Shown one piece after another: positions 5,942 to 52,245 of a stretch of 64,000 bases of DNA. Source of the stretch: Candidatus Woesearchaeota archaeon. Lineage in GTDB: Archaea; Nanobdellota; Nanobdellia; Woesearchaeales; 0-14-0-80-44-23. Positions within the stretch are counted from its first letter, which is position 1, and the number at the start of each line of letters is the position of its first letter. A program made the translations under genes and the position numbers. Under the pieces are notes generated by a model. The model had not been told where the DNA came from. It saw only the letters and a list, made by a program, of their open reading frames with translations, and searched no databases. The stretch lies in the NCBI GenBank assembly GCA_038874135.1, contig JAVZCZ010000001.1:751219-815218 (forward strand), written 5' to 3'.

Positions 5942-6101
5942 TGAATGCCTGGCATGGGTTGATGAAAAGGTAAAGAATAGAAGCTTTGCTAATCGGAGCC
6001 ACGGCTTTGAATTTTTAATAGCGCGATTCAAGGAGCGCCAAGAACTTCAGAATCTTCTCAACTCGCGAAATTCAAAGGAGGAAGACTTAAAACATGAATA
6101 A
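5904..6101 (+). CDS. Ribbon-helix-helix DNA-binding protein, paralogue of the 5741 gene
   Basis: 65 aa with QRITITLDSECLAWVD...NRSFANRSHGFEFLIARF. It overlaps both the upstream RHH gene and the downstream ATPase gene start. Confidence 0.55.
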   Translation: MRMKQRITITLDSECLAWVDEKVKNRSFANRSHGFEFLIARFKERQELQNLLNSRNSKEEDLKHE

Positions 6102-17600: not shown

Positions 17601-18652
17601 AACAATCTTATATTGAATTATATAACAACACACCTTATGCAGAAGCTACCTATAATTTATCTGCAGGAACTCATTACTGGAATGTTAGCTGCTGGGACTA
17701 TGTAAACCATACGGGCTTTAGCGAAACCTGGAACTTTACAGTTCCACTGCCAGACATCACAGTTTCAGCAATTGAATTCATTTATAATACCACAAACCCA
17801 GAAGAAGGCAAACAGCTGATGATAAATGCAACTGTAGAAAATTTAGGGAAGTCCAATGCAAACAATTTCTTAGTGCAATTCTTTGACGGAAATCCCGAAG
17901 ATGGGGGAATTCAGATTGGAAACAATATAACAATGAGTTTACAGCCGCTATCTGCTTCATACGCAATTATGAATTGGACTGCCTCCTTGGGAACTCACAA
18001 TATATTCGTGCTAGTAGATCCTCCAATAGCAACCAATGGAACGGTACAAGAAGAAAATGAGAGTAACAACATAGCTAATAAAACAATACTCATACAAAGT
18101 TGGCATTTCATCTACGGTAACCTTAGCGGAGAATTAGGACTTAGCAGCCAGCTCTATTCGCTGTTATTCCTCTGGAATGTTAGCGACGCCAACAATAGTA
18201 ATATATTTGCAGTTGACTCTGACAGCAATATTGATTGGGGAAGTCTAAAACCATTAGGATTGGATGTGAATAATCAAGCATCTCCCTACGACTTTTCAGT
18301 TCTAGACCAAAAACTAGGTATGTCAAATTATGAAGATTCAATAAACTCAACTTACACCGAGGGAGAATCTCCCAAAATGACAGAAACATTTACAATATAC
18401 GGAAAGCAGATAGAAAATGTTCCGGTAGCATATTCAATTAACAGCTCCAATTTTAAAACAGGAATACTGTGGGACACTTCCGATGGGAACACATACTTTA
18501 ACGGAACTCAGGATGTAGTTTTTGTAACTAAAACCAATATGAACGCACAGGGCAGTTTTGATCAGACAGACTACGAAATGCGCATCCCATCTAACTTGAA
18601 AAATTATATTGGCTCAAATCCAACAGTAGCATTATACTTAGAGATAAGATGA
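11612..18652 (+). CDS. Giant secreted adhesin-like protein with ~19 tandem Ig-like repeats, a CARDB domain and a conserved C-terminal module
   Basis: 2346 aa with an N-terminal signal peptide. The repeated ~95-aa units carry NCSL...W(N)V.C.D.AGN. A CARDB-like block follows (ITVSAIEF...NESNN). The last ~180 aa are homologous to the C-terminus of the 18649 protein. Confidence 0.75.
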   Translation: MNSSKFFKLIILGFIIVVGLLSQSKADSIQAVYGNTQLILTDKPQYTLGESVKINILIPTQLLSGMNVEIDTPASRYQLLDSNLSEVYFTPQQEGNYTIKISSAAGNLISSTSFLVLRKSEVEIPSSDSTSPKLSAKNWKGNYQKILRQEYLPANKKLSIEFSELSIQKIDFYNVSNPNGELKIEDVPLSYVENFSGRAARSFAIDPTLLEFTYAEIYFTATANELWKCREYDFSTRSCAGRYVKIMDTIPGRQYILHLTKEDPLYTEVWNNITCTCQNTGPNNGWAYCEVFCPVNIPIPTDALDGFIQILGYNVTITTSYPAGGYITPNSGMHYGFFDRDQLKSNGNESLIGYVAYDGPGTTTQLIYNTSMAPSGAYAFNRANCPTWTSGYCTWYVFLNSTAKSSKVKRPVTVNITLNSINWTWNYTTPAPSNITINLTSPADNTALGFRNVNFSYIPISSSPVSNCSLFINITGSWNAVATSYSIQNNSVNSINYTLSNDGEYLWNIRCYAGDISSFALYNRTLIVDTAPPSVTLLSPNNNSFSNTSIISFIYNVSDNFNIANCSLILDNVLVATSYAVTKYVPQNITYALSNGVHNWSITCFDFAGNFNISESRIINISAVPTIWDRRWYETSTSDYTSTANISLANLRDSTENSISVSVPVSTSYTLVDAISPYIGSNGAFVPKGTNVSFSGEFSTSPNAKGVISWFLYQTEGSTKNLLCNYGNGGSLGAPISSTTTASCTIQNDTLMLPTNRLQLIIIYYNNFKNLVSVTHYWDGTRLSFVEFSNFTTLGTLSVDLSYPDTDITVGQNELFNMSCTVNCSGGSCLNTLVYAQYNTSSTAFTNIGSSGNLILNTGETNPHSLGNINQSYTTTFLIKGNLASTNNIRCVAVSNYSNATGQIIRRVVVGDTTPPTVSLGNPANFSWLKSKTVTIYYTPSDNSGITNCSIYLNDILNYTLNSVPNGIEQNFTFHNLSDGLYNWTVACTDNSALTTRAAEKWFYIDTQNPSVELHQPENFIVLGSSLVLFNFTAYDEMAFNLSCNLTADNIIRISGINSLNSTPTIVNYTLSMGQHYWNVTCRDLAGNINTSETRTFNITNTPPEVTLISPPNNYWDRIGNITFIFNATDTGLISNCSLIINGQLNQTKNSTFLTNGINNFTILNMESGVYLWEVNCTDEGNLSTIAGPFTLNVDKSVPSVQLVFPSNYYNSSASSIVLQFITTDAHSANLSCNLTIDGILNSTDIIAQNNSLVSQPITFYDGIHNWSVSCSDLAGNLNSTNTWYFNISEKPSVSLSSPAPNAWTNGNVTFTFTASDNDGLYNCSLLINGAVYQTKNSSQLTNGGQNNFTVTNLLEGINQQWTVICFDLGIYKNFYSPSTRIFHVDKTPPAITLNYPADSAQIKQKNVSFNFSASDNFASNLYCNLSINGQINTSEIAVQSGSSVIVNVSGFPNGLYYWNVSCRDYAYNVNWSETNSFNVSVPPEVFLEYPLEGQWDNSENVTFYYLVTSNAELQSCSLIINGQLNQTDNSPVSSAYNNFTIFLMPEGYYTWMVNCTDSYWLTGSSNLRNLTIDRQAPWIVLNSPSNSSIVDSNYVTFNWTAFDMMADNISCDLYVDDYLRESEIYSKNGTPTTRTYIYSDGTYYWNVSCRDPAYNINWSQTYNFTVEAPPNVTLISPSNYNWSTAYSITFAYLPQDPIGIRQCTLYFDGSPNQTDYDIEANQLNYFTINPISEGVHTWSVNCTDSDWNTYMPPAFTLYIDRTPPTIVIESPVNLSVFSIPDVTFNFTAIDMLSDNISCKITINGNLNRTITVQNDTPYNFTIVKMSDNIYYWNVSCSDLAGNANASNTMQFTVSAIPSIIPISPANLSWSEVSQITFYFNATDNDGLSNCTLLINGVANQTKSSGLINGGINNITSTLTEGEYDWSIACTDSGIFYNLNLSAPQKIFVDLNSPLIVLYAPLSGSITENNSPVLNFTASDTMYPIMYCNITLDGKLKQSYIELYNNTPYAEATYNLSAGTHYWNVSCWDYVNHTGFSETWNFTVPLPDITVSAIEFIYNTTNPEEGKQLMINATVENLGKSNANNFLVQFFDGNPEDGGIQIGNNITMSLQPLSASYAIMNWTASLGTHNIFVLVDPPIATNGTVQEENESNNIANKTILIQSWHFIYGNLSGELGLSSQLYSLLFLWNVSDANNSNIFAVDSDSNIDWGSLKPLGLDVNNQASPYDFSVLDQKLGMSNYEDSINSTYTEGESPKMTETFTIYGKQIENVPVAYSINSSNFKTGILWDTSDGNTYFNGTQDVVFVTKTNMNAQGSFDQTDYEMRIPSNLKNYIGSNPTVALYLEIR

Positions 18653-21600
18653 AACGCAGCATAACTTTTGGAATAATTTTTCTACTTTTAATAGCATTAT
18701 CTCTAAAAATTTCCAGTGCGAGCTGTCCGGAAATAATACTTTCATCCAACACCACTATAAAAGATGTAGATATAAAAATAAAAGTTTCAGGGCAGACACA
18801 AGAGTCAGAATTAGTGATAAGAACGCCTTCAGGTCCGTATCGTCTTTTAGGAGATATTCCTTCCCTTACAAGCTTTACTCCAAAAGATGTAGGTAACTAC
18901 TCTGTTGAAGTTTGGCAGGACAAAGTGCTGTGTGACATAAAAAATTTTACCGCACTACCTCACAATAACTCGACACTATTCCTTCCGCCAATACTTTCCA
19001 CAGATAAAAAAGAATACCACTTAGGTGAAGCTGTTAGAATTTCACTCTCACCAGAATATTACGGTTACTCAATTGAAGGTTTAAATTTAAAACTGTTGAC
19101 AGGACAGCAATCCTACTCTCTCTTAGGGGAAATATCTGAGGATATAGAATTCCGACCTGTTTTTGAGGGTAACTATACAATTCTCTTATTAGACTCCATT
19201 GGAAATACTCTTGCTTCTGAAAGCTTTTCCGTCTACGCTTTGAATAGTTACTTTGTTAATAACTTATCTATTAAAAAACGATTTTCGGACAAATTTGAAT
19301 ACAACATCAGCACTAATTCAGAAGACATGATTGTTGAATTCTCAAACTCCTTCATTAAAAGACTAAACCTAAAGAAACTATCTTCAAGTAATCTGGCGAT
19401 AGTTAGGATTTCAGAGTTACTGCCGGAAGAGAGGAGCCGTCTGAATATTCCTACAATTGGAGGTGAAATTAAAGAATCTTTTGAATTAGATCCTTCCGCC
19501 CTAAACTTTTCAGAAGGTGAACTAACAATTGTCCCTTCAGGAAATGAGCTGTGGAAGTGCACTGATTGGAATTATGATGCTCAGTATTGTGTCGGAAGTT
19601 GGATCAAGCAGCAGAATCTTGTTCCCGGTGTTGAAAATGTAATTAAGTTTAACCTTTCCGATCCAGGATATGCTATTGTTGCAACTGCTAACATAACTTC
19701 AATAGCAGCAGCAACCCTCTCTGAAAACTCTTTTGTAGTAGCATATTGCGATGATACAAATGATAGAACTGCTTTCAAGGTTTTCTGGGCTAATGGGAGT
19801 GTAAGAACTAATGAGGTGATAGTTGATTCAACTACTGGAAATTGTGGTTACACCTCAGTTTCTGTTTCAGCACTTACCAACAACTCTTTTGTTATCGGAT
19901 GGATTGATACTGCCAGCAGTTATGCCAGCTTCGCTGTTTATGATGCCTCTGGAAATGTTATTACTCCAAGGGTGGATGTGGATACTACTGCTGGTACTTC
20001 CCGTTCTGTGAGTGTGTCTGCTTTTAATAGTTCTGCTTTTGTTTTTGGTTGGTATGATCAGGCTTCTGCTTATGCTTCTTTTAGGACTTTTAGTTCTTCT
20101 GGTGTGGCTATTTCTTCTGTTGTTAATGTGGATACTACTGCTGGTACTTGTAATGCTGTTTCTGTTTCTGCGGTTAATTCTTCTGCTTTTGTTTTTGGCT
20201 GGTATGATCAGGCTTCTTCTGATATGACTTTTCGTACTTATACTTCTTCTGGCGTTGCGATTTCTGCCGTGACTGATGTGAATACTAAGGTGGGTACTGG
20301 TTCTTTTTCTGTTTCTGTTGCTGCTTATAATTCTAGTGCTTTTGTTATTGTTTGGTATGATCAGAGGCTGGGTTATGTTAGTTTTCGTCAGTATTCTGTT
20401 GCTGGTGTTCAGATTGGGAGTCAGGTTAATCCGGATACTGCTGTTGGGACTACTGCTTCTGGTGTTTTTGTTTCTTCTGTTGGTGTGAATTCTAGTGTTT
20501 TTGCTGTGGGTTGGAATGATTTGACTACTGATGTTGTTAGTTCTGTGAGGACTTATAGTGGTGCTGGTGCTGCTGTTTCTTCTGAGGTGGTTGTGCAGGC
20601 TAATGCTTTGAAGTATAATGCTCTTGCCGGCTACTACCCTGCTACAGGCATAGGTTTCTGCAATGGAAACTTTGTAGCAATAATTGTTAATACTTCTTCG
20701 CAGGCATTTTTTAAAGCATACATGCCTAATGGAAGCGAATGGGACGGAAACTGTCCTGATGTTATACCGCCTCAAGTTGTTCTGAATAGTCCTCAGCAAG
20801 CCGCTGTCTTCTATAGTGATACTGTGGATTTTAATTTTACAGTAACCGACAATGTAGATTTAGTAATTCCAAACTGTACCCTTTGGATAAACACTTCATC
20901 AACATTCTCTCCAAACATAACAATTTACAATATAACCTCTAATAAGATGAACAACATAACTCTATCTCAAATTCCAGACAACAAATACATTTGGAATGTC
21001 AGGTGTTATGACAATGCAGGCAACTCAGCATTTGCTTCTTCAAATTTTTCATTATTTATCAACAAGAATCCACCTCAAATCTTGAACCCCCTCCTGAATG
21101 AAAGTACAGTAAATCAGAGCCATTCAGTAAAGTTTAATGTCTCAATAACCGATTCATATGGTATAGACTCTGCATATATAACTATGATGTACCCAAACGG
21201 TTCATCAAATAATTATTATCTTAATAGAAGTGGGAATGAATTTTACTTCATAATTAATAATACAATCCAGATAGGAACATATTCTGTGATATATGTGTGG
21301 GCTAATGATACCCTCGGACAAAACTCTTCTCTAACCCTTTCAGATCTCCAGTTTAATGTCACGCCTTCACCACCTGCTCAATTCAACCTTTTAAGTCCCC
21401 CGAATGCAACAGAGTCAACAAACCTGCGACCAAACTTGACTTGGGAGACATCTTACGATGAGACATTCCTTAATTATACTATTCAGATTTCTCAGGATGA
21501 AAACTTCGCAACAGTACTCTTTACATATTATAATCCGGGTGTTTATAATACTTCAAGAGTGCTGGATTATGCCCTAGAAGCGAATAAGAAATATTACTGG

Positions 21601-24600
21601 CAAGTTATTGCATACGACACCTTTGGCAATTATAAATATTCAACAAATTACTTCTCATACATAACTGACACTTTGGCACCTTCCATCGTGCTAAATATGC
21701 CGGGAAATCTTTCATTCATAAATTCTACACAAGTCAACTTTACATTTACACCTTCAGATGCTAACACGATATCAAGATGTACTCTCTACCTAAATGTCAC
21801 AGGAGCATTCCTCCCTAACACAAGTATAACTCAAGTTGTTAAAGACACTCCAAATTTAATACAAGCTGAAATTAAAGATGAGGGCGCCCACTTGTGGAAT
21901 ATCCTGTGTAATGATAGCGCAGGAAATTCTGCGTTTGCTCCTCAGAACTTCACCTTTATTTCAGATCTTAACCCGCCCTCAATACAACTATTAAGTCCTC
22001 CCAACGGCAGTACATACAACATTTCCAATTTTGTAAATTTCACTATAAATGCATCTGATAGGATATCCGCAGTATACCGCTGCACACTCATAATAAATGG
22101 ACAGCCCGTTCTTACTTCTTATTCTGTGCAGGACGGAGTGCCATACACATTTCAGTATTTCTTGCTGAATGGAAATTACTCCTGGCAGGCAGAATGTTAC
22201 GACTTAAACGGTCATTCAAACCTTTCTTATTCCTACAACATTTCAGTTTTAGTTATTGATTCAGTACCTCCAATCGTAACCTTAACTAGCCCCGCACAGG
22301 ACCAATACCTTTCCAGTAAAACAGTACTATTCAATTATACTCCGCAAGACGCTACTGGAATAAAGAACTGCACCCTATTTATTGATGGCAATGAAAACGA
22401 AACTGACTTTTCTGTTAGGAACTTGGAACCAAACTACTTCTTATTAGAATACTTAGAGGACGGGGTTCATAACTGGACTGTGCTCTGCTTTGACAATAGC
22501 AGCCAGCAGAACAGCTACGCACCCACCCCTGTAAGGTTCTCAATAGATACAACTCCGCCATCAGTAATTCTTATCTCTCCAGAAGATGGAGTTCTTACTA
22601 ATAATTCTCTAGTCACCTTTGTATACGCACCATCAGATGCAAATCTTGAAAATTGCTCCCTCTACACTAATTCTTCTAGCGAGTGGATGATGGAATCAAC
22701 AGACTTCTACCCAATTAATAATCAGCAGAATGTTTTTCAAAAATCAGTTGCGGATGGAGTTCTCGTTTGGAATGTTGTTTGTTATGATAAGGGCGGGCTC
22801 TCCAGCTTTGCTGACTTTAACCGAACATTGAATGTTGATACAACTCCGCCGCGATACGCCAATATAACTCTGATCCCGACAAGCCCAACTGAATATTCAC
22901 CTTATGGGGAGTATTACTTTAATATAACATGGATTGATGATTTTAATTTGTCATCTGTATATTTTGAGAGCAACTTTTCAGGAACCTTTGAGAATGAGAG
23001 TCCCAACCACTTTGAAAACATTTACTATGTTCACAAGACAGGTCTTAACTCAGGAACATACCAGATTAGGTGGTACGCTACTGATTCGGCAAAAAATCAG
23101 AACGAAACCCCGGCAATTCAGTATGATATAACTAAAGCAGAGCCTAACCTTACTTTAAAAATAAACAATTATTCTTATAATTTGACTGTTGAGGAAGATA
23201 GCATAGTTAATATCTCAGCAGAGCTCTTAGAGCCACCCGGAGCATACCTCTCTATTTATATTAACAATAATCTCATTACTAACGGAACTTCTCCTATTTA
23301 TACTACTTACAACTTTACAGAGCCTGGATCTTATAATGTTACTGCGAGCTTTGAAGGAAGCCAAAACTACCTTTCAGCATTCAGAACAATAATTGTAAAT
23401 GTCTCAGACACTACACCCCCAATTATAGTTCCCATCTTCCCGCAGAATAACTCATTCATAGGGGAAAATCACATTGTATTTTCTTACAATGTAACTGACA
23501 GCAGCCAAATTGCCAACTGTTCTTTATTCATAAATAGAACATTAAACCAGAGCAATACCAGCATACAGAATGGAATAAACTACTTTGAAGTTGACTTTCA
23601 AGATGGCAACTACTCCTGGCACCTCTCCTGTTATGACGAGTTTTCAAACTATGCTGAAAGCCCGGAGATATACTTCACTTCAATAAGGTCAGATAAAATA
23701 ATTGCTTCAGCACATCCTCAACAGCCGCAGTACCAAAAGGGTGAAACGGCAATACTTATAGGAAATACTACGAGCATCTTCGGAACACCATTAGATACAA
23801 ATATTTATGCTAATGTAATAAGAGGCAATACTACGATAGAATGGTGGAACACTTCATTCAAATACAGAAGGCCTATATTTATAAATAACTCAATGAACGC
23901 TTCAACATACTTGCAGGCGCTAATCAACATTTCAAACCTTAGCGCTTCAATTTCTAACTGTTCTGAACTCAGAATTGTAATGAACAACTCTTTTGAGCAC
24001 ACCCTAATCCCCTCAGAAGTACTCTTAGAAGAGGGAAATGCTTCGTGCCTGCTAAGATTTAATGCGAATGCTTCTGCACTCGCCACGAATGAGAACAACT
24101 ACTATGTATATTACGGAAACTCAGGAGCAGGAGCCCAGCAGCAGCTTCCAGAACTTGCAGGCATATCAGTACAGCGTAAGTCTGTTGTGGGAACTACAAC
24201 TTCAATCACTGATACGATGAGTGAGGTGAATACTTCAAGAGCGTTCCTGCTTTTCAGCGCCAATGTCGCCAGCTCAACTCCTGCAGTTTGGGAAATAACG
24301 GGAAGAATATTATCCTCAACGCAGGTAGTGTTTGAAAGATACTCGGGAACCACATCTGCAAATATATCCTGGCAGGTTATAGAAGGCTCAGAGATTAATG
24401 TGCAGAGGGGAACCGCATCATTTGGAGCTACACAATCAAATACTACAATACTTATAGATAGTGTTAATCTAAACGAGTCTTTCATAATAATAACCGGAAG
24501 GACCAGCAGCACCACAGCAGGGAATGCAAACATGGGCTTCTTTAGGGCAATGTTCCTTAACTCTACTGCAATTTATATTGAAAGGGCTACAACTGGAAGC

Positions 24601-26487
24601 ACTGCTGTTGCAGAATGGCAGGTAGTTTCGTGGAGTGGTGCGAGAGTGCAGAGTGGAAACATCTCTTTCATAACAGCTTCGCAGAGCGTCCCCATAGAAG
24701 AGGTTAATCTTTCCAGGAGCATGCTGATATTCAGCACTGCTGTAACTGGCAACACCAGGATAGGAGCTAACATGATTTTTGGCAACTTTACCAATTCCAC
24801 AACAGCATACTTCTCAAGAACGAATGCTGCAGGAACAGCATATGTTTCCTGGTTTGCAGTTGAGCTTCCCCAATACTACTCAGTACAAGCCGGAACAGTT
24901 TCAATCACAGCAGATACCAATGTTCAAATATACCCCGTGCGCACTGAGAAGACATTTCATCTGCACTCAGCTTCAGCAGTAGGAGCAACCAGCACTACCT
25001 ACTCTGATGCCCTAATAAGAGCCGAGCTAACAAATAGCTCAAATCTTATGCTGGATAAGGTGTCTGGCACAAATACCAACTATGTTGCCTGGTTTGTAGT
25101 AGAAGAAAAATATCTTTCAGCTAATTCGGGAATGGAAGAAGCTTTAATGGCATACAACTACAACTCCACATTGACAGGGCTTTACACTCTAAGTTGGGTT
25201 TCCGGAAAGAGCCCGGTGGGCAACTACACCTTTGTATACTCTGCAACAAAAACTAATTACTCATCTGCAAGGGCATACTCCACATTTGAGATAATTCCAG
25301 ACACAACTCCGCCCAATGTTACGCTTGTAAGCCCACTTCAACTTGAAAAGAGGGGCGTCGGAAATATAATCTTTTCCTACATACCTTATGACTTGAACCT
25401 TCTAAACTGCACACTCTACCTTGGAAAGGACGGAACTTTTTCTCCGAACATTACGAGCACGAGTCCAATAAATAATGCAGTAAACAATCTTTCAGTATAC
25501 TTAGACATCGGATTATACACTTGGAATGTGCTTTGTAGGGACAGTGAAGGAAACTCTGCATTTGCTCTGCAGAACAGGACACTTAACATAACAGGCCCAG
25601 ACCTATACCCTGTTGCTGTTTGGTTTAGCAACACGCCCAGGATTGAGACCGTTAACACAACCATCTTTGTTAACATTTCTAATAAGGGGCTTTCTGATTG
25701 TACTAAAAACTTCACTGTTGAGTTCAGGAGAAGTGGGCTGCTCATAGGCAATCTGAGTGTGCAGGGGCTGCTGATTGGCGAAGTTAAAAGCTTGAACTCT
25801 TCATTCCTGTTAGGTCCCGGCATTAATAATTTAAGTATTAGCATAGATCCTGATAACAGGATTAACGAGTCGGACGAGTCAAACAACAATGCTTATGAGG
25901 TTATTGCTGTTGAGTTTTATCAGTACTATTACGGAAATCTTAGCTTTTTACAGGTTTTGAGCAAGTCCTCAAACGAGTCTGTATTCACTTGGGAAAATTC
26001 AAATCCTGAAGATGGGGTTATTTTAGTTGCTGATATTGATTCAAAATTTGAGATTGGAAACTTAAGAGCCCTGACTCGGAATGCAAATGGGGATCCAGTT
26101 ATAAATGATCTTTCAGAATTGGATGAGGCTTTTAATTCTTCAAATCTTAACGATTCTATTAAGAATGTGTGGGGAAACGGCACTGACATTCCAATAATGA
26201 CTGCCAACTTTACGATAGGACAGTTTAATATTTCTAACGTTCCGGTAGCATATTCCAGAAATTCCACTTCTTCAATTACGGGAATACTCTGGGACTCTGC
26301 AGATGATTTAAGCCACAACCTTCAGTATGACAGCTCTGATAGGGAAGATATAGTTCTAATCACAAAGATTCACCCGTTAGCAGACTGTTCTTTTGGTAGC
26401 TGCAATTATGAGATAAGAATTCCAGCAGCTCTACGCTCTTACAAGCCTAACACCGACCTCGTAGTTTTTTACACCATGCTAAACTGA
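18649..26487 (+). CDS. Giant secreted adhesin-like protein with beta-propeller-like blades, Ig-like repeats, a CARDB domain and a conserved C-terminal module
   Basis: 2612 aa with a signal peptide. The ATGA overlap with the upstream gene suggests translational coupling. Blade repeats resemble SVSVSAFNSSAFVFGWYDQAS. Many NC[ST]L...C.D..GN domains are followed by CARDB and the shared C-terminal module. Confidence 0.75.
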   Translation: MKRSITFGIIFLLLIALSLKISSASCPEIILSSNTTIKDVDIKIKVSGQTQESELVIRTPSGPYRLLGDIPSLTSFTPKDVGNYSVEVWQDKVLCDIKNFTALPHNNSTLFLPPILSTDKKEYHLGEAVRISLSPEYYGYSIEGLNLKLLTGQQSYSLLGEISEDIEFRPVFEGNYTILLLDSIGNTLASESFSVYALNSYFVNNLSIKKRFSDKFEYNISTNSEDMIVEFSNSFIKRLNLKKLSSSNLAIVRISELLPEERSRLNIPTIGGEIKESFELDPSALNFSEGELTIVPSGNELWKCTDWNYDAQYCVGSWIKQQNLVPGVENVIKFNLSDPGYAIVATANITSIAAATLSENSFVVAYCDDTNDRTAFKVFWANGSVRTNEVIVDSTTGNCGYTSVSVSALTNNSFVIGWIDTASSYASFAVYDASGNVITPRVDVDTTAGTSRSVSVSAFNSSAFVFGWYDQASAYASFRTFSSSGVAISSVVNVDTTAGTCNAVSVSAVNSSAFVFGWYDQASSDMTFRTYTSSGVAISAVTDVNTKVGTGSFSVSVAAYNSSAFVIVWYDQRLGYVSFRQYSVAGVQIGSQVNPDTAVGTTASGVFVSSVGVNSSVFAVGWNDLTTDVVSSVRTYSGAGAAVSSEVVVQANALKYNALAGYYPATGIGFCNGNFVAIIVNTSSQAFFKAYMPNGSEWDGNCPDVIPPQVVLNSPQQAAVFYSDTVDFNFTVTDNVDLVIPNCTLWINTSSTFSPNITIYNITSNKMNNITLSQIPDNKYIWNVRCYDNAGNSAFASSNFSLFINKNPPQILNPLLNESTVNQSHSVKFNVSITDSYGIDSAYITMMYPNGSSNNYYLNRSGNEFYFIINNTIQIGTYSVIYVWANDTLGQNSSLTLSDLQFNVTPSPPAQFNLLSPPNATESTNLRPNLTWETSYDETFLNYTIQISQDENFATVLFTYYNPGVYNTSRVLDYALEANKKYYWQVIAYDTFGNYKYSTNYFSYITDTLAPSIVLNMPGNLSFINSTQVNFTFTPSDANTISRCTLYLNVTGAFLPNTSITQVVKDTPNLIQAEIKDEGAHLWNILCNDSAGNSAFAPQNFTFISDLNPPSIQLLSPPNGSTYNISNFVNFTINASDRISAVYRCTLIINGQPVLTSYSVQDGVPYTFQYFLLNGNYSWQAECYDLNGHSNLSYSYNISVLVIDSVPPIVTLTSPAQDQYLSSKTVLFNYTPQDATGIKNCTLFIDGNENETDFSVRNLEPNYFLLEYLEDGVHNWTVLCFDNSSQQNSYAPTPVRFSIDTTPPSVILISPEDGVLTNNSLVTFVYAPSDANLENCSLYTNSSSEWMMESTDFYPINNQQNVFQKSVADGVLVWNVVCYDKGGLSSFADFNRTLNVDTTPPRYANITLIPTSPTEYSPYGEYYFNITWIDDFNLSSVYFESNFSGTFENESPNHFENIYYVHKTGLNSGTYQIRWYATDSAKNQNETPAIQYDITKAEPNLTLKINNYSYNLTVEEDSIVNISAELLEPPGAYLSIYINNNLITNGTSPIYTTYNFTEPGSYNVTASFEGSQNYLSAFRTIIVNVSDTTPPIIVPIFPQNNSFIGENHIVFSYNVTDSSQIANCSLFINRTLNQSNTSIQNGINYFEVDFQDGNYSWHLSCYDEFSNYAESPEIYFTSIRSDKIIASAHPQQPQYQKGETAILIGNTTSIFGTPLDTNIYANVIRGNTTIEWWNTSFKYRRPIFINNSMNASTYLQALINISNLSASISNCSELRIVMNNSFEHTLIPSEVLLEEGNASCLLRFNANASALATNENNYYVYYGNSGAGAQQQLPELAGISVQRKSVVGTTTSITDTMSEVNTSRAFLLFSANVASSTPAVWEITGRILSSTQVVFERYSGTTSANISWQVIEGSEINVQRGTASFGATQSNTTILIDSVNLNESFIIITGRTSSTTAGNANMGFFRAMFLNSTAIYIERATTGSTAVAEWQVVSWSGARVQSGNISFITASQSVPIEEVNLSRSMLIFSTAVTGNTRIGANMIFGNFTNSTTAYFSRTNAAGTAYVSWFAVELPQYYSVQAGTVSITADTNVQIYPVRTEKTFHLHSASAVGATSTTYSDALIRAELTNSSNLMLDKVSGTNTNYVAWFVVEEKYLSANSGMEEALMAYNYNSTLTGLYTLSWVSGKSPVGNYTFVYSATKTNYSSARAYSTFEIIPDTTPPNVTLVSPLQLEKRGVGNIIFSYIPYDLNLLNCTLYLGKDGTFSPNITSTSPINNAVNNLSVYLDIGLYTWNVLCRDSEGNSAFALQNRTLNITGPDLYPVAVWFSNTPRIETVNTTIFVNISNKGLSDCTKNFTVEFRRSGLLIGNLSVQGLLIGEVKSLNSSFLLGPGINNLSISIDPDNRINESDESNNNAYEVIAVEFYQYYYGNLSFLQVLSKSSNESVFTWENSNPEDGVILVADIDSKFEIGNLRALTRNANGDPVINDLSELDEAFNSSNLNDSIKNVWGNGTDIPIMTANFTIGQFNISNVPVAYSRNSTSSITGILWDSADDLSHNLQYDSSDREDIVLITKIHPLADCSFGSCNYEIRIPAALRSYKPNTDLVVFYTMLN
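19969..20624. repeat. Copy 1 of an exact 656-bp GT-rich cassette encoding propeller-blade repeats
   Basis: Nucleotide-identical to 30550-31205. The composition is anomalous. Flanking sequence is homologous but diverged. Confidence 0.9.
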
Positions 26488-26655
26488 GTTCAAATGTTTC
26501 TTTACATTTAGTTATCTAGTTTATCTATTAATATATTTAATATAATAAATTAATTATTTTAATTTATTAAGTTAAATATTTTTTTAATTAATTTATTATT
26601 TTAATAACTTAATCAGCAAGTTTTAAAACCCCTATTAACTTATTAAAAATCTAAG

Positions 26656-27150
26656 ATGCCAATTTTAAAGAAAGAGCAACCAACTGCATTTCAGGAGCCA
26701 CCTAAAGAAGTGCCGCCCTTGGCGCGGGAGATAATTGAAAGGAGCAAGATAGCTGGGCATACCGAACTTCCTCAGGAACTTCCACGAATTGCCGAATTGG
26801 TTGAAAGCCCAAAACAGGAATATCCAATACCACAAGAGTCAGCTCACGCTTCCGACGACATAAAAGAAGTGAAAGAACGCCTTGAACGAATAGAATCCTT
26901 GCTCAGAACTGCTGTTCCGGGAAAATATCTCATACTGAGAGATGGGAAAGTACTTAAGAACATTGCCGATTTGAGAAGCGCTTTAGCCACGATGAGTTCG
27001 GAAACATTCAATTTGCATGTCAACTTTGAGAGGAATGACTTTGCAAATTGGGTTAGGAATGTCTTCTTGGAAAAAGAGCTTGCTGATAAGTTGGATGGAG
27101 CCACGAGCAGGGCTCAGATGATTAGAATTTTAAACGAATATTTTGACTGA
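26656..27150 (+). CDS. Hypothetical soluble protein with a C-terminal HVNFERND domain
   Basis: 164 aa. The last ~70 aa are similar to the cytoplasmic C-terminus of the 35335-37869 protein (F.HVNFERND.A.W...LA..L...M..IL). Confidence 0.5.
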   Translation: MPILKKEQPTAFQEPPKEVPPLAREIIERSKIAGHTELPQELPRIAELVESPKQEYPIPQESAHASDDIKEVKERLERIESLLRTAVPGKYLILRDGKVLKNIADLRSALATMSSETFNLHVNFERNDFANWVRNVFLEKELADKLDGATSRAQMIRILNEYFD

Positions 27151-27378
27151 GAAATTCTTAAGTTTTCTTCTCGTGAAGACAAAGTTTATTTTTAAACGAA
27201 ATCCCATTTGAACATTTTTAAGTTATATAATTCTTTATTTTTAATAAAAAAGAATTTTAATCCGTTATAATTAAAAAATAAGCATTTTAATGGTTTTTTT
27301 TATAGATTTTTTATGATTTTTTTTAGAAATATTTATATATTAGTATACCTTTTTGTAGTTTAAATTAATAAAAAAGTT

Positions 27379-27413
27379 ATTGGTATACTGCAATGATTAA
27401 AAAGTATACCAAT
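27379..27413. promoter_or_regulatory. Palindromic operator-like site, ATTGGTATACT-N13-AGTATACCAAT
   Basis: Perfect 11-bp inverted repeat 41-75 bp upstream of the 27454 ATG. An additional TAGTATACC half-site lies at 27341-27349. Confidence 0.4.
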
Positions 27414-27453
27414 AGCTTATTTACAAGCTTAAAGCAAGCAAGAGGGTGTCAAC

Positions 27454-28224
27454 ATGAAAAGGCGAATCAAAAACTTAGGAGCAATAGCCTCCTTCCTGGC
27501 TTTGTTGCTAGCAGCAGCAGTTCTGGCAGAACCTCAACAGGAGCCAATAGGTCCTGACAGCATAAACCAGTTAGGCTCCAGCAGGCATACCCCCGCAGCT
27601 ATTCCATCACGCCCAGCATATGCAGGAAACGTAACTGAACTTTCAGTCTATACTCAGACCACAACACTCGGCTGGCAAGGTTACTATGGAAATGTAACGG
27701 GTACAATAGTTCTTGATGATGCTAATAATCACACAATGTATGACTGGGCAATTGCACATCCAGAAGGAGAAATCTATGCAGTAATCCAACCAGTAGCTGA
27801 TTGGGACCAGGTTTCATGTGCAACTCCAGCTCAGATAAGTACGATAGAAAACAACACTTACAAGTTTAACACTTATCCGAACGGAACACTAAAGCCCTCA
27901 TTAGATGCAGACAGCATTACAAACACATTTGCAGCAAACTTTGATGGAGACTTTTATGTCGGCTCAACACGAATAAATGCTACATCCGGGTGTAAGGCAG
28001 CATACCTCTATGTCAATGATGCTCCAGACCCGTCAAAGAAGTTTACTGAGACATTGCTATACGACCAGGTGAATGCTAATCTCATCTTCACAGCAATCCT
28101 GGTAGAGAATACGGCAACAGGATTTGACGGGCTGCCTCACGACTTTCAGATGATAGTAGCAGAGAACGGTCACAATGGAGATGAAACCACAACAACATAC
28201 TACTTTTATGTAGAACTGCAATAA
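27454..28224 (+). CDS. Secreted protein, paralogue of the 28495 gene
   Basis: Signal peptide. Shared motifs with the 28495 product are YxGNVTG, ...YDW... and FDFQMIV...YY.YVEL. Confidence 0.55.
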   Translation: MKRRIKNLGAIASFLALLLAAAVLAEPQQEPIGPDSINQLGSSRHTPAAIPSRPAYAGNVTELSVYTQTTTLGWQGYYGNVTGTIVLDDANNHTMYDWAIAHPEGEIYAVIQPVADWDQVSCATPAQISTIENNTYKFNTYPNGTLKPSLDADSITNTFAANFDGDFYVGSTRINATSGCKAAYLYVNDAPDPSKKFTETLLYDQVNANLIFTAILVENTATGFDGLPHDFQMIVAENGHNGDETTTTYYFYVELQ

Positions 28225-28294
28225 GGGAAAGCCATACTTGCTTTCTCTTATTAATTTTCACCTCCAGGCGAGGCGAGCAAGCGAGTGATGAAAA

Positions 28295-28498
28295 ATGGAA
28301 CGCATCCCAGCACTAAATCCCAGATACACAAAAGTGGTCTGGCAGGAAACCCCTCAATCTGTAAGGGTTATACAGGGTATCTATTCTGAAGATGGAGACT
28401 TCATAAGAGTTAAAGGCGACTATAAAGAGGTTCTAATCAGAAAGGATAAGGTGATCTCCATAGAGCACAAGCAGGCTGCGCGGGGTGATATAAAATGA
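28295..28498 (+). CDS. Small hypothetical protein
   Basis: 67-aa ORF between the two paralogues, with an ATGA overlap with the downstream gene. Confidence 0.35.
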   Translation: MERIPALNPRYTKVVWQETPQSVRVIQGIYSEDGDFIRVKGDYKEVLIRKDKVISIEHKQAARGDIK

Positions 28499-29187
28499 AA
28501 AAAGTATTCATACTAATCTTGCTGGCAGCATTTCTCGCATTCTCAGTCCGCGCAGTTCCGACTGGCCCTGTTATAATGAGCAACAGTACAGACTACGGTC
28601 CATCTAATGCTGGCACACTGGTCAGCACTGCTGGAGGAACGATTACAACATATCTATTAAATGCTACTCAGCAGAACCTTAGATGGAAGGCATATGTCGG
28701 AAATGTGACTGGAAGGTATGTGCTTCAGGACTCTGCCAACTACTCCATCTACGACTGGAGCTTCACAATAAACTCGGGAGAGGTATATGCCACGAGAGCG
28801 TCCTCAGTCAACTGGGCAAATGTGAACTGCGCAAGCCCCGCACAGATAAGTTCAGAAGAATCAGCACTGAATCAGAACTCAGCCAATCCCGATACCATCT
28901 CAAAGACATTCAACACAAAATTTCACAACGCCTTTTCAGTAGGAACTGTCCCAATAAGTGCCAACTCTTGCAACTCCACAGCAACTAATGTTAACGGAGC
29001 CCCTCAAAGCACCTACTTTCAAGAAGTGCTCTTACATGATCAAGCGAGCGCTTTCATATACGCAACTCTTTTGAGCATTGGACAGACTGGTTATAATAAT
29101 CAGCATTTTGATTTTCAAATGATAGTGCCTGAAGACGAGATTACTCCGGGAAACACTCAGTACTACCTGTATGTAGAGCTCATATGA
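28495..29187 (+). CDS. Secreted protein, paralogue of the 27454 gene
   Basis: Signal peptide MKKVFILILLAAFLAFSVRA. Conserved C-terminal HFDFQMIVPE...YYLYVELI. Confidence 0.55.
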   Translation: MKKVFILILLAAFLAFSVRAVPTGPVIMSNSTDYGPSNAGTLVSTAGGTITTYLLNATQQNLRWKAYVGNVTGRYVLQDSANYSIYDWSFTINSGEVYATRASSVNWANVNCASPAQISSEESALNQNSANPDTISKTFNTKFHNAFSVGTVPISANSCNSTATNVNGAPQSTYFQEVLLHDQASAFIYATLLSIGQTGYNNQHFDFQMIVPEDEITPGNTQYYLYVELI

Positions 29188-29194
29188 GCCAGAG

Positions 29195-30112
29195 GTGATT
29201 AAATTGAAAATCAAGCAAGCCATTCAAGCATTGGCAGTGGGACTTCCTCTGGCATTCCTGCTCTACTTTTGGACTGCCTCACTAATATTATTTGCAGGCA
29301 AGGCTGAAGCAGTTTCATCCTGGAATGTTAATGCTACAGTCAATGTAACAAACGCTCCGCCAACAGTTGTGAGCGTGCTTTTAGACGACAATGTAACATC
29401 GCCTGCTGACACAATTGACCTAGTAGCAGGGGGCACTCAGCTAGTTTACTGCAACGCTACCGTGAATGATACTAACGGGTACTTAGACATAACTAGCGCT
29501 AGGGCTGTGCTCTACCACTCTTCCTCAACCCCCAATGCAGCTGATAACAACGAGACGCACTACACTAACAACTCATGCACACTACTCGCCGGCTCAGGCA
29601 TATCCAGACCTGTTTCCTGCGCATTCAATATGCTTTACTACGCAACTAACGGCACTTGGACTTGTAATGTAACTGCTTTTGACTCAGATAATGCCAACGG
29701 CACCGGCATAGATACTGCAAATGTGAGCATACTTGTAGCACTTAACATCTCTACACAGGTTCTAAACTATGGAAACCTTGCTCCACTGCAGGAATCCAGC
29801 CCGGTTACAGAAACAATAACAAACCACGGCAATGTGCAGATTGACCTCGTGCTGAATGGAACAGACATGCCCTGCACTTCAGTAGGAATAATAACTCCAA
29901 ACGCACAGCATTATAATGTTACAGGAACAGGAACGACTTATGCCACAATGACTCCCCTGCAGTACAATCCCGTGACCGAAACCTCATTTAACCTTGCGAA
30001 GAGGACTGACGCTGCTGAGAGCACAAGGGCAACCTACTGGAAAATCATACCTCCAGTAGGAACCAAGGGGATATGCACAGGAAATGTAACAATAGCAGCA
30101 GTAGTGGGATAA
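29195..30112 (+). CDS. Secreted or membrane-anchored protein with a ~260-aa domain shared with the C-terminus of the 30160 protein
   Basis: N-terminal hydrophobic segment. Domain motifs are LLDD...CN.T..D..G......AVLY, NGTWTCNVT and IDL.LNGT.M.C.. Confidence 0.55.
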   Translation: MIKLKIKQAIQALAVGLPLAFLLYFWTASLILFAGKAEAVSSWNVNATVNVTNAPPTVVSVLLDDNVTSPADTIDLVAGGTQLVYCNATVNDTNGYLDITSARAVLYHSSSTPNAADNNETHYTNNSCTLLAGSGISRPVSCAFNMLYYATNGTWTCNVTAFDSDNANGTGIDTANVSILVALNISTQVLNYGNLAPLQESSPVTETITNHGNVQIDLVLNGTDMPCTSVGIITPNAQHYNVTGTGTTYATMTPLQYNPVTETSFNLAKRTDAAESTRATYWKIIPPVGTKGICTGNVTIAAVVG

Positions 30113-30159
30113 ACTTTTTTTATAAAACTTTTTAAATATATTCTCATTTTAAATGGCTA

Positions 30160-32418
30160 ATGTTGAAATATAATCAGAGGTTTATTTTATATGCATCATT
30201 TCTAATTTTAATAGCAGCACTTTCCAGTATGGCAGCTGCTGCTCCAATAACATTTTCTACACACTTCTTAGCTCCTATAGCAGTCGCTTCTCTGTCTAGA
30301 GACTCATTCGTAATCGCGTATTGTGACAATACCTCCGCCAAGGTCGCCTTTCAAATTTATAGAACTAATGGCACCCAGCTCCTTGCAGAGCGGGATGTGG
30401 ACACAACACTTGGAACAAACCCTTGCGGTTACACTTCAGTTGCAGTTTCAGCTTTTAATTCAACACACTTTGTTATCGGCTGGATAGACAGCGGAAGCTC
30501 TTATGCAAGCTTTCAAGTGTTTGATATAAATGGGAATCCATATTCCAGCAGGGTGGATGTGGATACTACTGCTGGTACTTCCCGTTCTGTGAGTGTGTCT
30601 GCTTTTAATAGTTCTGCTTTTGTTTTTGGTTGGTATGATCAGGCTTCTGCTTATGCTTCTTTTAGGACTTTTAGTTCTTCTGGTGTGGCTATTTCTTCTG
30701 TTGTTAATGTGGATACTACTGCTGGTACTTGTAATGCTGTTTCTGTTTCTGCGGTTAATTCTTCTGCTTTTGTTTTTGGCTGGTATGATCAGGCTTCTTC
30801 TGATATGACTTTTCGTACTTATACTTCTTCTGGCGTTGCGATTTCTGCCGTGACTGATGTGAATACTAAGGTGGGTACTGGTTCTTTTTCTGTTTCTGTT
30901 GCTGCTTATAATTCTAGTGCTTTTGTTATTGTTTGGTATGATCAGAGGCTGGGTTATGTTAGTTTTCGTCAGTATTCTGTTGCTGGTGTTCAGATTGGGA
31001 GTCAGGTTAATCCGGATACTGCTGTTGGGACTACTGCTTCTGGTGTTTTTGTTTCTTCTGTTGGTGTGAATTCTAGTGTTTTTGCTGTGGGTTGGAATGA
31101 TTTGACTACTGATGTTGTTAGTTCTGTGAGGACTTATAGTGGTGCTGGTGCTGCTGTTTCTTCTGAGGTGGTTGTGCAGGCTAATGCTTTGAAGTATAAT
31201 GCTCTGGCTGGCTACTACCCTGCCACGGGCATACGCATGTGTGACAACGCATTCGTAATAGCAATTTCTAATACAAGCACGCAAGCATTCTTCACAGGAT
31301 ATTATGCCAATGGAACCAACTGGAATGGAATATGCACGCCTCCGAATATGAACTCATCTAAAATAACCTCTTCAGAAGATAACTTTTACTACAATGCAAC
31401 CCTGATTGGATGGTGCAATGCAACCCATCCTGACAGCCAAAACATCTCATACTACTACAACTGGTACCTAAACGGGCTATTAAACAAAAGTGGACAAACA
31501 CAGTATAGCACTCCAGGAGTCGCAGTGAATGTGGATAACATAACCTCATCATACCTCTCAATAGGCCAAAACTGGACTTTGGAATGCATTGCCTATGACG
31601 GATTATCCAACTCAACACCTCTCAACTCGACAGCAGTGACAATAGTGGATATAAATAGGCCTCCCCTGATAACCTCAATTCTTTTGGACGATGACATCCT
31701 TGCTCCTTCTTTTCAGATAGATTTATCTGCGGGCTCAACTAAAAGGGTTAATTGTAATGGCACAATTCAGGATCCAGATGGAATCTCAGACATTGTGAGC
31801 ATATCAGCAGTACTTTACGCTTCTGGCAACGGCACTCTTCCTACATTTCCCGAAGACAATAACACATTATACCGAAACTACAGCTGCTCACTATCCCAAA
31901 TAAACCTGACCTCTGGCTCTTTTAACTGCTCATTCGCATTGTGGTATTATGCCCAAAACGGCACCTGGACATGCAATGTTACTATTAATGACACAAAGTC
32001 CCACTACGCTTCAGCAATAATAAATTCAACTGTTAACGAGCTGGTGGCATTTGAAGTTTTCCCACTAACAGTTGACTATGGCAATATGGCTCCTGGAAGC
32101 ACCAGCGCGTCTTCAACAAATCTGCTAATAACCAATATGGGCAATACAAAAATTGACTTAATACTTAATGGCACCAACATGAGCTGCACCTTAGGATTTG
32201 TAGGAGCTTCAAACCAGCATTATAATTTGACAGGGTTTGACCAGGAATATTCTAATATGAGAGCACTTACCGAGCTTCCGTTTACCGCTTCAGATTTTGA
32301 CCTTCAAAAGCGTGTAACCTCGGAAGCTAACAGGACTGCCTATTGGCGCGTTCAAATCCCTACAGGCGTTAAGGGAAGATGTCTAGGTATAATTCAGCTG
32401 ACAGCTCAGAAGGGTTAA
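30160..32418 (+). CDS. Secreted protein with beta-propeller-like blades plus a C-terminal domain homologous to the 29195 protein
   Basis: Signal peptide. The blades include a 219-aa stretch 100% identical to the 18649 protein. The C-terminal ~260 aa are homologous to the 29195 protein. Confidence 0.65.
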   Translation: MLKYNQRFILYASFLILIAALSSMAAAAPITFSTHFLAPIAVASLSRDSFVIAYCDNTSAKVAFQIYRTNGTQLLAERDVDTTLGTNPCGYTSVAVSAFNSTHFVIGWIDSGSSYASFQVFDINGNPYSSRVDVDTTAGTSRSVSVSAFNSSAFVFGWYDQASAYASFRTFSSSGVAISSVVNVDTTAGTCNAVSVSAVNSSAFVFGWYDQASSDMTFRTYTSSGVAISAVTDVNTKVGTGSFSVSVAAYNSSAFVIVWYDQRLGYVSFRQYSVAGVQIGSQVNPDTAVGTTASGVFVSSVGVNSSVFAVGWNDLTTDVVSSVRTYSGAGAAVSSEVVVQANALKYNALAGYYPATGIRMCDNAFVIAISNTSTQAFFTGYYANGTNWNGICTPPNMNSSKITSSEDNFYYNATLIGWCNATHPDSQNISYYYNWYLNGLLNKSGQTQYSTPGVAVNVDNITSSYLSIGQNWTLECIAYDGLSNSTPLNSTAVTIVDINRPPLITSILLDDDILAPSFQIDLSAGSTKRVNCNGTIQDPDGISDIVSISAVLYASGNGTLPTFPEDNNTLYRNYSCSLSQINLTSGSFNCSFALWYYAQNGTWTCNVTINDTKSHYASAIINSTVNELVAFEVFPLTVDYGNMAPGSTSASSTNLLITNMGNTKIDLILNGTNMSCTLGFVGASNQHYNLTGFDQEYSNMRALTELPFTASDFDLQKRVTSEANRTAYWRVQIPTGVKGRCLGIIQLTAQKG
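30550..31205. repeat. Copy 2 of the exact 656-bp GT-rich propeller cassette
   Basis: Identical to 19969-20624. The antisense ORFs at 20012-20227 and 30593-30808 are also identical. Confidence 0.9.
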
Positions 32419-51920: not shown

Positions 51921-52007
51921 TCTTTCTAAAACAAACATTCCATCCTTATTTAAATATTTCGCCAAATATCAAAATGTTTAAAAATAACTGAATATGCTCT
52001 CCATCCT

Positions 52008-52093
52008 GCGGGGGTATCAAAGGCTGGTCAAATGAGCGGGACTTAAGATCCCGTCCCCTAGCGGGTTCGGGGGTTCAAATCCCTCCCCCCGCA
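52008..52093 (+). tRNA. tRNA-Leu(TAA)
   Basis: Acceptor GCGGGGG/CCCCCGC, anticodon stem CGGGA/TCCCG with loop CTTAAGA, long variable arm, 86 nt. Confidence 0.8.
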
Positions 52094-52138
52094 TTTAACC
52101 GATTGTTTTAAAAACAAAGCCAGATTCCAGGAGTTTGC

Positions 52139-52245
52139 GCCTCTGTAGCTCAGTGGTAGAGCGCCACCTTGGTATATTCCGCAGTCAACCCAGGCTTGGA
52201 ATTGCAGAAAGGTGGAGGTCGCGAGTTCAATCCTCGCCAGAGGCT
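52139..52245 (+). tRNA. tRNA-Thr(GGT) with a ~35-nt intron at the canonical 37/38 position
   Basis: Acceptor GCCTCTG/CAGAGGC, D-arm GCTC-AGTGGTA-GAGC, anticodon stem CCACC/GGTGG separated by 42 nt (loop TTGGTA + intron + A), T-arm GCGAG-TTCAATC-CTCGC. Confidence 0.7.

Follow-up and report, generated by a model that had tools for sequence, protein, structure and literature searches.

Probable recurrent gene conversion between two surface-protein genes of a Candidatus Woesearchaeota archaeon, with a sense-strand codon bias confined to the converted tracts

Interlocus gene conversion, or concerted evolution, is known from surface antigens and adhesins of bacteria and parasites. Paralogues homogenised in this way contain a near-identical in-frame segment between diverged flanks; the segment clusters with its own genome but the flanks with their gene, both copies carry the same strain polymorphisms, and the tracts are mosaic and bidirectional. 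Each of these features recurs in a gene pair, here called G and L, on a 64,000-nucleotide (nt) stretch of the genome of a Candidatus Woesearchaeota archaeon (assembly GCA_038874135.1, contig JAVZCZ010000001.1, positions 751,219 to 815,218 of the forward strand; hereafter the window), where a tract of 656 nt is identical in both genes. The locus differs from the described cases in its host, a DPANN archaeon with a genome of ~0.9 Mb, in the maintenance of the process across three species with different tract ends, and in an extreme strand-specific codon bias. Effects of conversion on codon composition are also known, and GC-biased conversion has raised the G+C content of third codon positions (GC3) in Hsp70 and histone paralogues. 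More generally, repeated conversion shifts third-position composition in converted regions towards G+C and symmetrically, for example in protocadherin clusters with a GC3 of 54-69% (PMC1852091). The tract in G and L resembles these cases in the sharp third-position contrast between converted and unconverted parts of the same genes. However, its GC3 falls to 0.21, and the enrichment is one of G+T on the sense strand only, reaching 98-100% as compared with 54-69% (PMC1852091). Literature searches for the accessions and for G/T-ending tracts of this kind returned no description. To our knowledge, conversion between paralogues is in itself a known event and conversion-coupled, strand-specific recoding is undescribed; nor are we aware of more than the most basic insight into the recombination biology of DPANN archaea, whose genomes are minimal and which are uncultured.

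The products of G and L, of 2612 and 752 amino acids (aa), are NCBI entries from metagenome-assembled genomes (MAGs) labelled Candidatus Woesearchaeota, and we take the host to be a tiny, symbiotic DPANN archaeon. The two genes lie 10.6 kb apart in direct orientation on one chromosome. In the following list, the gene extents are those of the open reading frames (ORFs) and their translations, and the propeller of G was delimited by pairwise and six-sequence alignments to the L domain:

18649-26487, plus strand: gene G, coding for a giant secreted or surface protein of 2612 aa
30160-32418, plus strand: gene L, coding for a secreted protein of 752 aa, in which a signal-like N-terminus is followed by a propeller (residues ~33-394) and by C-terminal domains rich in beta structure
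19681-20760, plus strand: modelled seven-bladed beta-propeller of G, residues 345-704
19969-20624, plus strand: probable conversion tract, G copy, covering blades 3-6 and the start of blade 7; exactly identical to 30550-31205
30550-31205, plus strand: probable conversion tract, L copy, exactly identical to the G copy and of the same G/T-ending codon composition
20625-20652, plus strand: shoulder to the right of the G tract, native in codon composition; 24 of its 28 nt match L
31206-31233, plus strand: corresponding right shoulder of the L tract, with the same 24/28 matches to G

Protein G begins with a signal-like segment, a judgement made by eye from the sequence alone, which is followed by the propeller (residues ~345-704), Ig-like repeats and a CARDB domain. 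Its Pfam matches are Big_7, Big_13 and CARDB, and the NCBI name is 'CARDB domain-containing protein' (Ca. Woesearchaeota). A Pfam search of L gave no match. L has a full-length orthologue with 68% identity (P0002) in a sister species, in which synteny is conserved.

The original prediction had described the two intervals as identical and in frame in two surface-protein genes with homologous yet clearly diverged flanks, and this description stands. All 656 positions match (0 mismatches), the identity cannot be extended by even one base on either side, and the tract is in frame 0 of both ORFs, where it comprises codons 441-658 plus 2 nt of G and codons 131-348 plus 2 nt of L. It corresponds to ~4.4 repeats of a 50-aa (150-nt) unit, adjacent units being 61-64% identical at the DNA level. 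G and L are homologous across ~360 residues in a codon-level alignment, without an indel over the junctions and with the register kept, and outside the tract they share ~57% nt and ~50% aa identity; the flank peptides quoted in the prediction agree with the translations. The codon-by-codon alignment that had been proposed for delimiting the tract revealed an abrupt left border. On the right side, a shoulder of 28 nt (24/28 identical, all 4 differences synonymous) precedes the ordinary divergence; it is either the remnant of an older, longer tract or a homology anchor. Among exact repeats of at least 30 nt, the window contains only one other, a duplicate of 1156 nt in the genes of two membrane proteins, B and C:

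4021-5176, plus strand: exact duplicate, copy 1, which spans the complete HerA/FtsK-like ATPase domain in membrane protein B (ORF 3183-5564)
8201-9356, plus strand: exact duplicate, copy 2, in membrane protein C (ORF 6094-9636)

Assembly errors could produce such a pattern if the sequence truly resided in one gene and was pasted into the other by collapse or chimera, or if similar regions were merged to a consensus. The source is a MAG, de Bruijn assemblers give one sequence to two copies that differ at very few sites, and assemblies of the same or related species break their contigs inside the repeats; a G/L hybrid contig of the sister species (see below) could also be a mis-join. However, the gene pair and the tract are also present in GCA_038871545.1, GCA_038872315.1 and GCA_038731275.1, with 0, 0, and 1 differences, respectively, between the G and L copies. 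These three further assemblies of the same species (JAVZHW, 252 kb; JAVZGD, 53.6 kb; JAVYQW, 495.6 kb) stem from different samples, and the strains are ~0.25% apart from each other, so the assemblies are not copies of one another. All four junctions (two left and two right) recur in the four assemblies, which carry strain-specific single-nucleotide polymorphisms (SNPs) elsewhere, and the match extends 0 nt beyond the tract, so that no common k-mer could support a chimeric join. The single difference between the copies, in JAVYQW, lies at offset 593 in the G copy only, 64 nt from the tract edge; that assembler therefore separated the copies there. Moreover, frame and homologous register are intact in both genes, analogous tracts with different borders exist in two other species, and a collapse cannot generate codon bias. 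An artefact as the origin of the patch, which according to the original prediction would have refuted it, is thus very unlikely, although a collapse could still conceal that the copies truly differ at one or a few sites.

Four tract positions vary among the four genomes (offsets 96, 265, 321, and 593). At offsets 96, 265, and 321, each strain has its own base, which is the same in both of its copies. Offset 96 is no more than ~127 nt, the overlap length indicated by contig ends, away from unique flanking sequence and was probably phased by the assembler. The near-identity of the G and L tracts, with no more than four variable sites among four assemblies, is robust, while the exactness of the repeat in its interior is beyond proof from assemblies. 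Contigs also break inside the tracts: two contigs of other assemblies begin inside the second 1156-nt copy, 130 nt short of its end (window ~9227), another ends 122 nt into this copy (window ~8322), and two SPAdes contigs of the sister species open with exactly 55 nt of the sister tract. This is the behaviour of true repeats in a de Bruijn graph. A practical consequence is that the tracts break or mis-join metagenome assemblies of these genomes and give rise to spurious hybrid genes and long antisense ORFs.

In the sister species (Joint Genome Institute contig Ga0210051_1000514), G and L have a tract of 391 nt with 1 mismatch, whose left end lies at most 7 nt from ours and whose right end lies 258 nt earlier. 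The G region of this species was rebuilt from the contig by means of an exact DNA pattern; orthologues of G were not among the results of a protein search that used its N-terminal 720 aa as the query. A third species from Kamchatka (MAG contig JBNAUL010000001.1) has two propeller genes 13.9 kb apart with a tract of 747 nt and 1 mismatch, which begins in blade 1 and reaches the start of blade 6. The sequence of this tract was confirmed in a second Kamchatka MAG, whose contig breaks inside it. Between its propeller genes, the merged Kamchatka contig also contains a 166-nt direct repeat of 90% identity (20200-20365 versus 22091-22255). In a comparison of the three species, sequences of one genome group together in the tract, but orthologues group together in the flanks. 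A four-sequence codon alignment of our species and the sister species has 37 gene-wise and 13 species-wise informative sites in the left flank, but 0 gene-wise and 113 species-wise sites in the part converted in both species, and gene-wise sites return after the tract. In-frame identity within diverged genes, phylogenetic incongruence, and polymorphisms common to both copies, which characterise ectopic gene conversion, were thus all found. Together, the diverged flanks, abrupt borders, contrasting site counts (37:13 versus 0:113), co-varying SNPs, and tracts in two further species agree with the predicted conversion patch over pre-existing paralogues, and the 656-nt identity very probably reflects genuine, recurrent ectopic (interlocus) gene conversion between surface-protein paralogues.

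The direction of transfer differed between lineages. In the part converted only in our lineage, 21 informative aa sites are of the L type and 6 of the G type (p = 0.006), and the aa identity is 69% to the sister L as compared with 52% to the sister G, which indicates that L overwrote G in our lineage. Blades 1-2 of the Kamchatka tract, in turn, contain 7 G-type sites and 1 L-type site. Such opposite directions in two lineages point to conversion that is recurrent and bidirectional. In the sister-species population we also observed a hybrid protein of 1099 aa (P0035, Ga0210049_1002054), which consists of the N-terminus of G, the common tract, and the C-terminus of L; it represents either a deletion of ~10.7 kb by recombination between direct repeats or a mis-join by the assembler. 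The hybrid gene, the L-to-G direction in our lineage, and the segmental, in-frame transfer between two surface proteins would also be expected if L were a donor cassette for adhesin G in a surface variation system of the pilE/pilS or vlsE type. However, the window contains two copies only, both in full-length ORFs with signal-like N-termini, and the result is homogenisation instead of diversification. Part of the Kamchatka tract was converted in the opposite direction, and strains differ at only 3-4 tract sites. On these grounds (two complete ORFs in the window, a homogenising outcome, and a direction that varies by lineage), the locus lacks the hallmarks of cassette-based antigenic variation, in which several silent, partial donors feed a single expression site and generate diversity; this reading has only a slim chance of being correct.

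The converted segment belongs to a domain that is confidently modelled as a seven-bladed beta-propeller. An AlphaFold2 model of L residues 28-396, built with 21 homologues, has a predicted local distance difference test score of 92.9 and a predicted template modelling (TM) score of 0.92, and shows an all-beta fold with 28 strands in seven groups of four. The top Foldseek matches are generic propellers (prolyl oligopeptidase, sialidases, and fucose lectins) with TM scores of 0.5-0.58. Pfam has no family for L or for the propeller part of G, and a profile search against the PDB sequences gave no match for the propeller, which therefore represents a seven-bladed family that belongs to no curated sequence family. 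The family comprises a few dozen archaeal proteins, mostly from DPANN archaea, and ~20 homologues come from archaeal metagenomes. From its context, the propeller is presumably a ligand- or host-binding module at the cell surface. Conversion homogenises its central blades while the rest of both proteins stays diverged. In a distant homologue (P0007, 762 aa), successive propeller blades are nearly identical at the protein level, which suggests that homogenisation of blades within a gene may also occur in this propeller family.

Besides the identity, the tract stands out by its codon composition, at which the original prediction had hinted by calling the flanks 'native-composition'. Its third positions consist of A (0.00), C (0.02), G (0.19), and T (0.79) and are thus 98% G/T, as compared with 0.39-0.60 in every other ORF of the window and in the flanks of the same genes. 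The corresponding values are 0.97 in the 1156-nt duplicate and 0.98-1.00 in the Kamchatka tract. This is a strand-asymmetric fall of GC3, and GC-biased conversion was rejected as its cause. A phase-aware scan of the whole window found the G/T-ending state at the four cassette copies only, and in per-codon tracks of both genes the bias starts and stops within about one codon of the identity borders, so that biased patch and identical patch are co-extensive. In the Kamchatka species the bias covers its own, different extent, the last ~30 identical nt being of native composition, and the four-fold degenerate sites comprise 124 T, 0 G, 1 A, and 1 C. The sister tract is weakly shifted (0.60 versus 0.41-0.46 in its flanks). 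The same scan also flagged two A/C-rich windows that deviate in the opposite direction (9359-9556 and 9874-10068); these are low-complexity coding tails rich in Lys, Glu, and Gln, one belonging to the ATPase protein and the other to the ORF after it. Eleven further loci, of which ten were obtained through a genome search with a propeller profile and one is the sister hybrid contig, contain no comparable duplicated G/T-ending tract; their few extreme windows are single sites without a duplicated partner.

Codon usage in this state comes down to about one codon per amino acid (GCT, GGT, GTT/GTG, ACT, CCT, TCT/AGT, TTG, AGG/CGT, ATT, TTT, TAT, CAT, AAT, GAT, TGT, AAG, GAG, CAG). Almost all codons end in T, or in G where T would alter the amino acid. 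Leucine is encoded by TTG 43 times and by CTT 4 times, as compared with 72% CTN in the background; synonymous first positions are therefore affected, too. Between the L gene of the sister species and ours, 75 third-position changes lead towards G/T and 0 lead away. Sorted by type, the third-position differences comprise 44 C-to-T, 19 A-to-T, 19 G-to-T, 6 A-to-G, and 6 C-to-G. Polarising the substitutions with the three species failed: two of the three lineages are biased, and parsimony therefore places the changes on the sister branch. A sense codon that ends in G or T gives an antisense codon that starts with C or A, which is never a stop codon, and long antisense ORFs therefore overlie all four cassette copies:

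19867-20799, minus strand: antisense ORF over the G tract, a by-product
30460-31284, minus strand: antisense ORF over the L tract, a by-product
4005-4895, minus strand: antisense ORF over the first 1156-nt copy, a by-product
8191-9075, minus strand: antisense ORF over the second 1156-nt copy, a by-product

These ORFs, which were taken from the ORF list, span 274-310 aa, are codon-aligned with the sense frame, and have low-complexity translations; a Pfam search gave no match for any of the four. Antisense genes were rejected as the cause of the bias, since the ORFs are its by-products, but over such cassettes they could be mis-annotated as genes.

The ATPase duplicate shows the same state in a different protein context. 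Proteins B and C are otherwise unrelated, and their flanks cannot be aligned. The duplicate has 97% G/T-ending codons and a GC skew of +0.57, and in JAVYQW both copies have G instead of T at offsets 518 and 677. Here the bias extends to the amino acids. In comparison with 105 aligned homologues, the cassette is enriched in R (2.0x), V (1.7x), and G (1.6x) and depleted in K (0.29x), I (0.37x), and Q (0.42x). The replacements are strongly directional, with K>R 1348:48, I>V 1223:140, S>G 281:30, and Q>R 132:0. Ala and Pro are unchanged; the shift is therefore an enrichment of G+T, not of G+C. The 'keto' residue ratio, (R+V+G+W+C+F)/(K+I+N+T+Q+H+M), is 3.06 in the cassette as compared with a median of 0.77 and a maximum of 1.06 among 120 homologues, none of which has the shift. 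In the propeller tract the shift is milder (I>V 69:11, T>A 44:13, N>S 30:1).

One source of such a composition could be a third party, i.e., a virus, plasmid, or other locus with a G+T-rich coding strand, such as a single-stranded DNA replicon from hot springs, which recombined into both paralogues. A block import would explain why the composition border coincides with the identity border in both genes and why the tract composition is far from that of the host, and HerA/FtsK-type ATPases are common in mobile elements. However, the identity of aa and of codon positions 1 and 2 follows the species tree and reaches the level expected of an orthologue of the sister L, which is of native composition. 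Positions 1 and 2 of our tract are 81% identical to the sister and 73% identical to the Kamchatka species, whereas position 3 is convergent (52% and 83%, respectively). Thus, the tract descended vertically in each lineage, and a mobile donor common to the species was rejected. In addition, the Kamchatka tract has a protein sequence and end points of its own, two independent recipients would need end points identical to the nucleotide, and IMG/VR contains no match to a 35-mer taken from the tract. Import from a donor is accordingly very unlikely.

Alternatively, selection might act on the nucleic acid itself. Codons ending in A or C could be purged because of a nuclease or toxin, deaminating conditions, or slow wobble translation of NNU codons, with conversion keeping the copies alike. 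This would be in line with an almost purely synonymous change (75 towards G/T and 0 away) at a protein identity to the sister orthologue of 73.5%, close to the 74.5% of the left flank. It would also be in line with the preference of TTG over CTN and the tie of AGG and CGT, which maximise G+T across the whole codon, and with the same state being reached in two lineages. But the bias ends at the identity borders inside single domains and genes, which a need at the mRNA level would not obviously do, and it affects a cytoplasmic ATPase domain as well as an extracellular propeller. The sister species uses ordinary codons, and the amino acid composition is dragged along, which is typical of mutation pressure. 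Selection of this kind therefore appears improbable. Independent changes between two strains are also more often G/T inside the cassettes (4/6) than outside (8/84; Fisher p = 0.0025). On balance, we lean towards a mutation or repair bias coupled to conversion as the cause of the codon bias.

A programmed process could have the same effect, either by homology-dependent editing of duplicated DNA or by a reverse-transcriptase or transcript-templated pathway that copies sense RNA after its damage or editing. In fungi, repeat-induced point mutation turns C into T on either strand, disrupts reading frames, and drives the copies apart. The tracts resemble its products in that only duplicated segments are altered and the changes stop at the duplication borders. 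They differ in their intact frames, in the strand specificity, in including A-to-G and purine-to-T changes, and in copies that stay identical, and repeat-induced point mutation in the fungal sense does not account for intact ORFs with T/G-directed one-strand changes that include transversions. Diversity-generating retroelements are known in DPANN archaea, and the locus shares with them a duplicated short stretch of coding sequence within surface-protein genes of a DPANN genome. In G and L, however, there are no differences between the copies, adenine-specific or other, both copies lie in full-length genes, the tracts are much longer, and the window ORFs include no reverse transcriptase, so that a diversity-generating retroelement was rejected. 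For a programmed system in the wider sense speak the restriction to duplicated segments, the sense-strand polarity in all three cases, which fits an RNA intermediate, and a completeness of recoding that slow background processes would hardly achieve. Yet the 64-kb window contains no reverse transcriptase or deaminase gene. The intact ORFs and normal protein divergence require a process that is slow and filtered by selection, and adenines at codon positions 1 and 2 are identical in both copies, contrary to what a diversity-generating retroelement would leave. We regard a programmed system as unlikely, if somewhat less so than selection on the nucleic acid.

Strand-specific damage to exposed DNA offers another comparison. 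The heavy strand of animal mitochondrial DNA is enriched in G+T. Recombination intermediates are sources of strand-coordinated mutation, including clusters that arise from resection and break-induced replication (PMC6786661, PMC9262586, PMC6765108), and strand asymmetry is also associated with transcription (PMC2927911). The tracts resemble such signatures in the C-to-T and A-to-G changes on one strand, in the tie to recombination intermediates or the non-template strand, and in the drag on amino acids. Known damage signatures form gradients along genomes or replichores or one-off clusters, whereas here a saturated bias occurs within duplicated tracts of 0.65-1.2 kb, and purine-to-T changes are needed as well. 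We propose that the two copies might pair and convert repeatedly, and that pairing would be possible only inside the already identical tract, so that its borders would stay sharp. During these events the sense strand of the tract would be exposed in single-stranded form, be it as a resected end, in a D-loop or R-loop, or as a transcript that serves as repair template, and in a thermophile-like organism it would suffer heat damage. Deamination of cytosine and adenine would cause C-to-T and A-to-G changes, and the loss of a base, with A then inserted opposite the gap, would turn purines into T. T would then be a sink, and sites at which T alters the amino acid would come to rest at G. Purifying selection would clear harmful replacements, and conversion would spread the surviving changes to both copies. 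A crude hint that heat matters for the bias comes from the IVYWREL fraction (the summed share of these seven amino acids) in the three lineages: in syntenic proteins it is 0.399 in our species and 0.395 in the Kamchatka species, but 0.352 in the weakly biased sister, and the housekeeping proteins of the window reach 0.418. This specific single-strand damage mechanism is put forward tentatively, as the most likely candidate though more doubtful than not. Still less certain, and on present evidence rather unlikely, is a general process in thermophilic DPANN archaea by which paired segments are recoded in a homology-dependent and sense-strand-specific manner and synonymous A and C are driven to T (or G). 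Conversion templated by transcripts or coupled to R-loops could bring about such recoding, as could a dedicated activity for editing or repair, and the outcome would be tracts with about one G/T-ending codon per amino acid.

Several points weigh against a conversion-coupled mutational bias. Offsets 265 and 321 cannot be phased by k-mers, and part of the co-variation between the copies could stem from bubble popping by the assembler. A pure mutational drive would need an at least 50- to 100-fold directionality to produce 124 T : 0 G : 1 A : 1 C at four-fold degenerate sites. The unreduced protein identity of the tract fits a strong bias at an ordinary rate, and equally selection on nucleotide composition. 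The ratio of G to T shows no gradient over the length of the tracts, although a fixed initiation site with graded exposure might produce one. Conversion alone is not enough to cause the bias, since the sister tract was converted (1 mismatch in 391 nt) and yet is not strongly biased. The link to temperature consists of three lineages and a crude proxy, and the tRNAs of the window have a G+C content of only 56-65%. All three biased tracts lie on the sense strand of co-oriented genes, where the effects of transcription and replication strand are inseparable. Finally, none of the ORFs in the 64-kb window was recognised as a gene for a deaminase, reverse transcriptase, or recombinase. Even so, recurrent conversion with a coupled sense-strand bias, taken as a whole, seems to us the likely explanation of the locus.

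Housekeeping genes fill the rest of the window and code for the NOG1 GTPase, topoisomerase I, L10e, aIF5B, KsgA, and tRNAs. The window reaches further upstream than the start of the 252-kb contig JAVZHW010000001.1. In JAVZHW the NOG1 gene is split into two pieces (244 aa and a second fragment; fetched locus 21046-22259), whereas it is a single gene of 352 aa in the window and the other assemblies (fetched loci 21046-22107); a frameshift or sequencing error in that assembly is a possible reason. A gene of 2346 aa upstream of G has diverged internal repeats with a period of ~561-576 nt (13404-17170), and its C-terminal region matches the C-terminus of G over 70 nt at 71% identity (18416-18485 and 26236-26305). 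This similarity is ordinary, unconverted paralogy inside the cluster. A 107-nt Rfam tRNA match without an ARAGORN call (52139-52245, plus strand) adjoins a tRNA-Leu (52007-52094) and is probably an intron-containing archaeal tRNA.

The tracts in G and L provide direct evidence from multiple species that, in DPANN archaea, segments of surface proteins for host interaction are actively homogenised by homologous recombination. What is kept alike is a specific part of a probable binding module that occurs in both a giant adhesin-like protein and a small secreted one, which suggests that G and L must present the same surface. Tracts with G/T-ending codons, of which three are at hand from two species, are a simple signature that can be searched for genome-wide. 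If the bias is mutational, it would be a natural record of the strand that is exposed in archaeal recombination or transcription at high temperature. Homology-dependent recoding of paired segments would, if true, represent a previously undescribed mutational mechanism and a sequence signature of active ectopic recombination in archaeal genomes.

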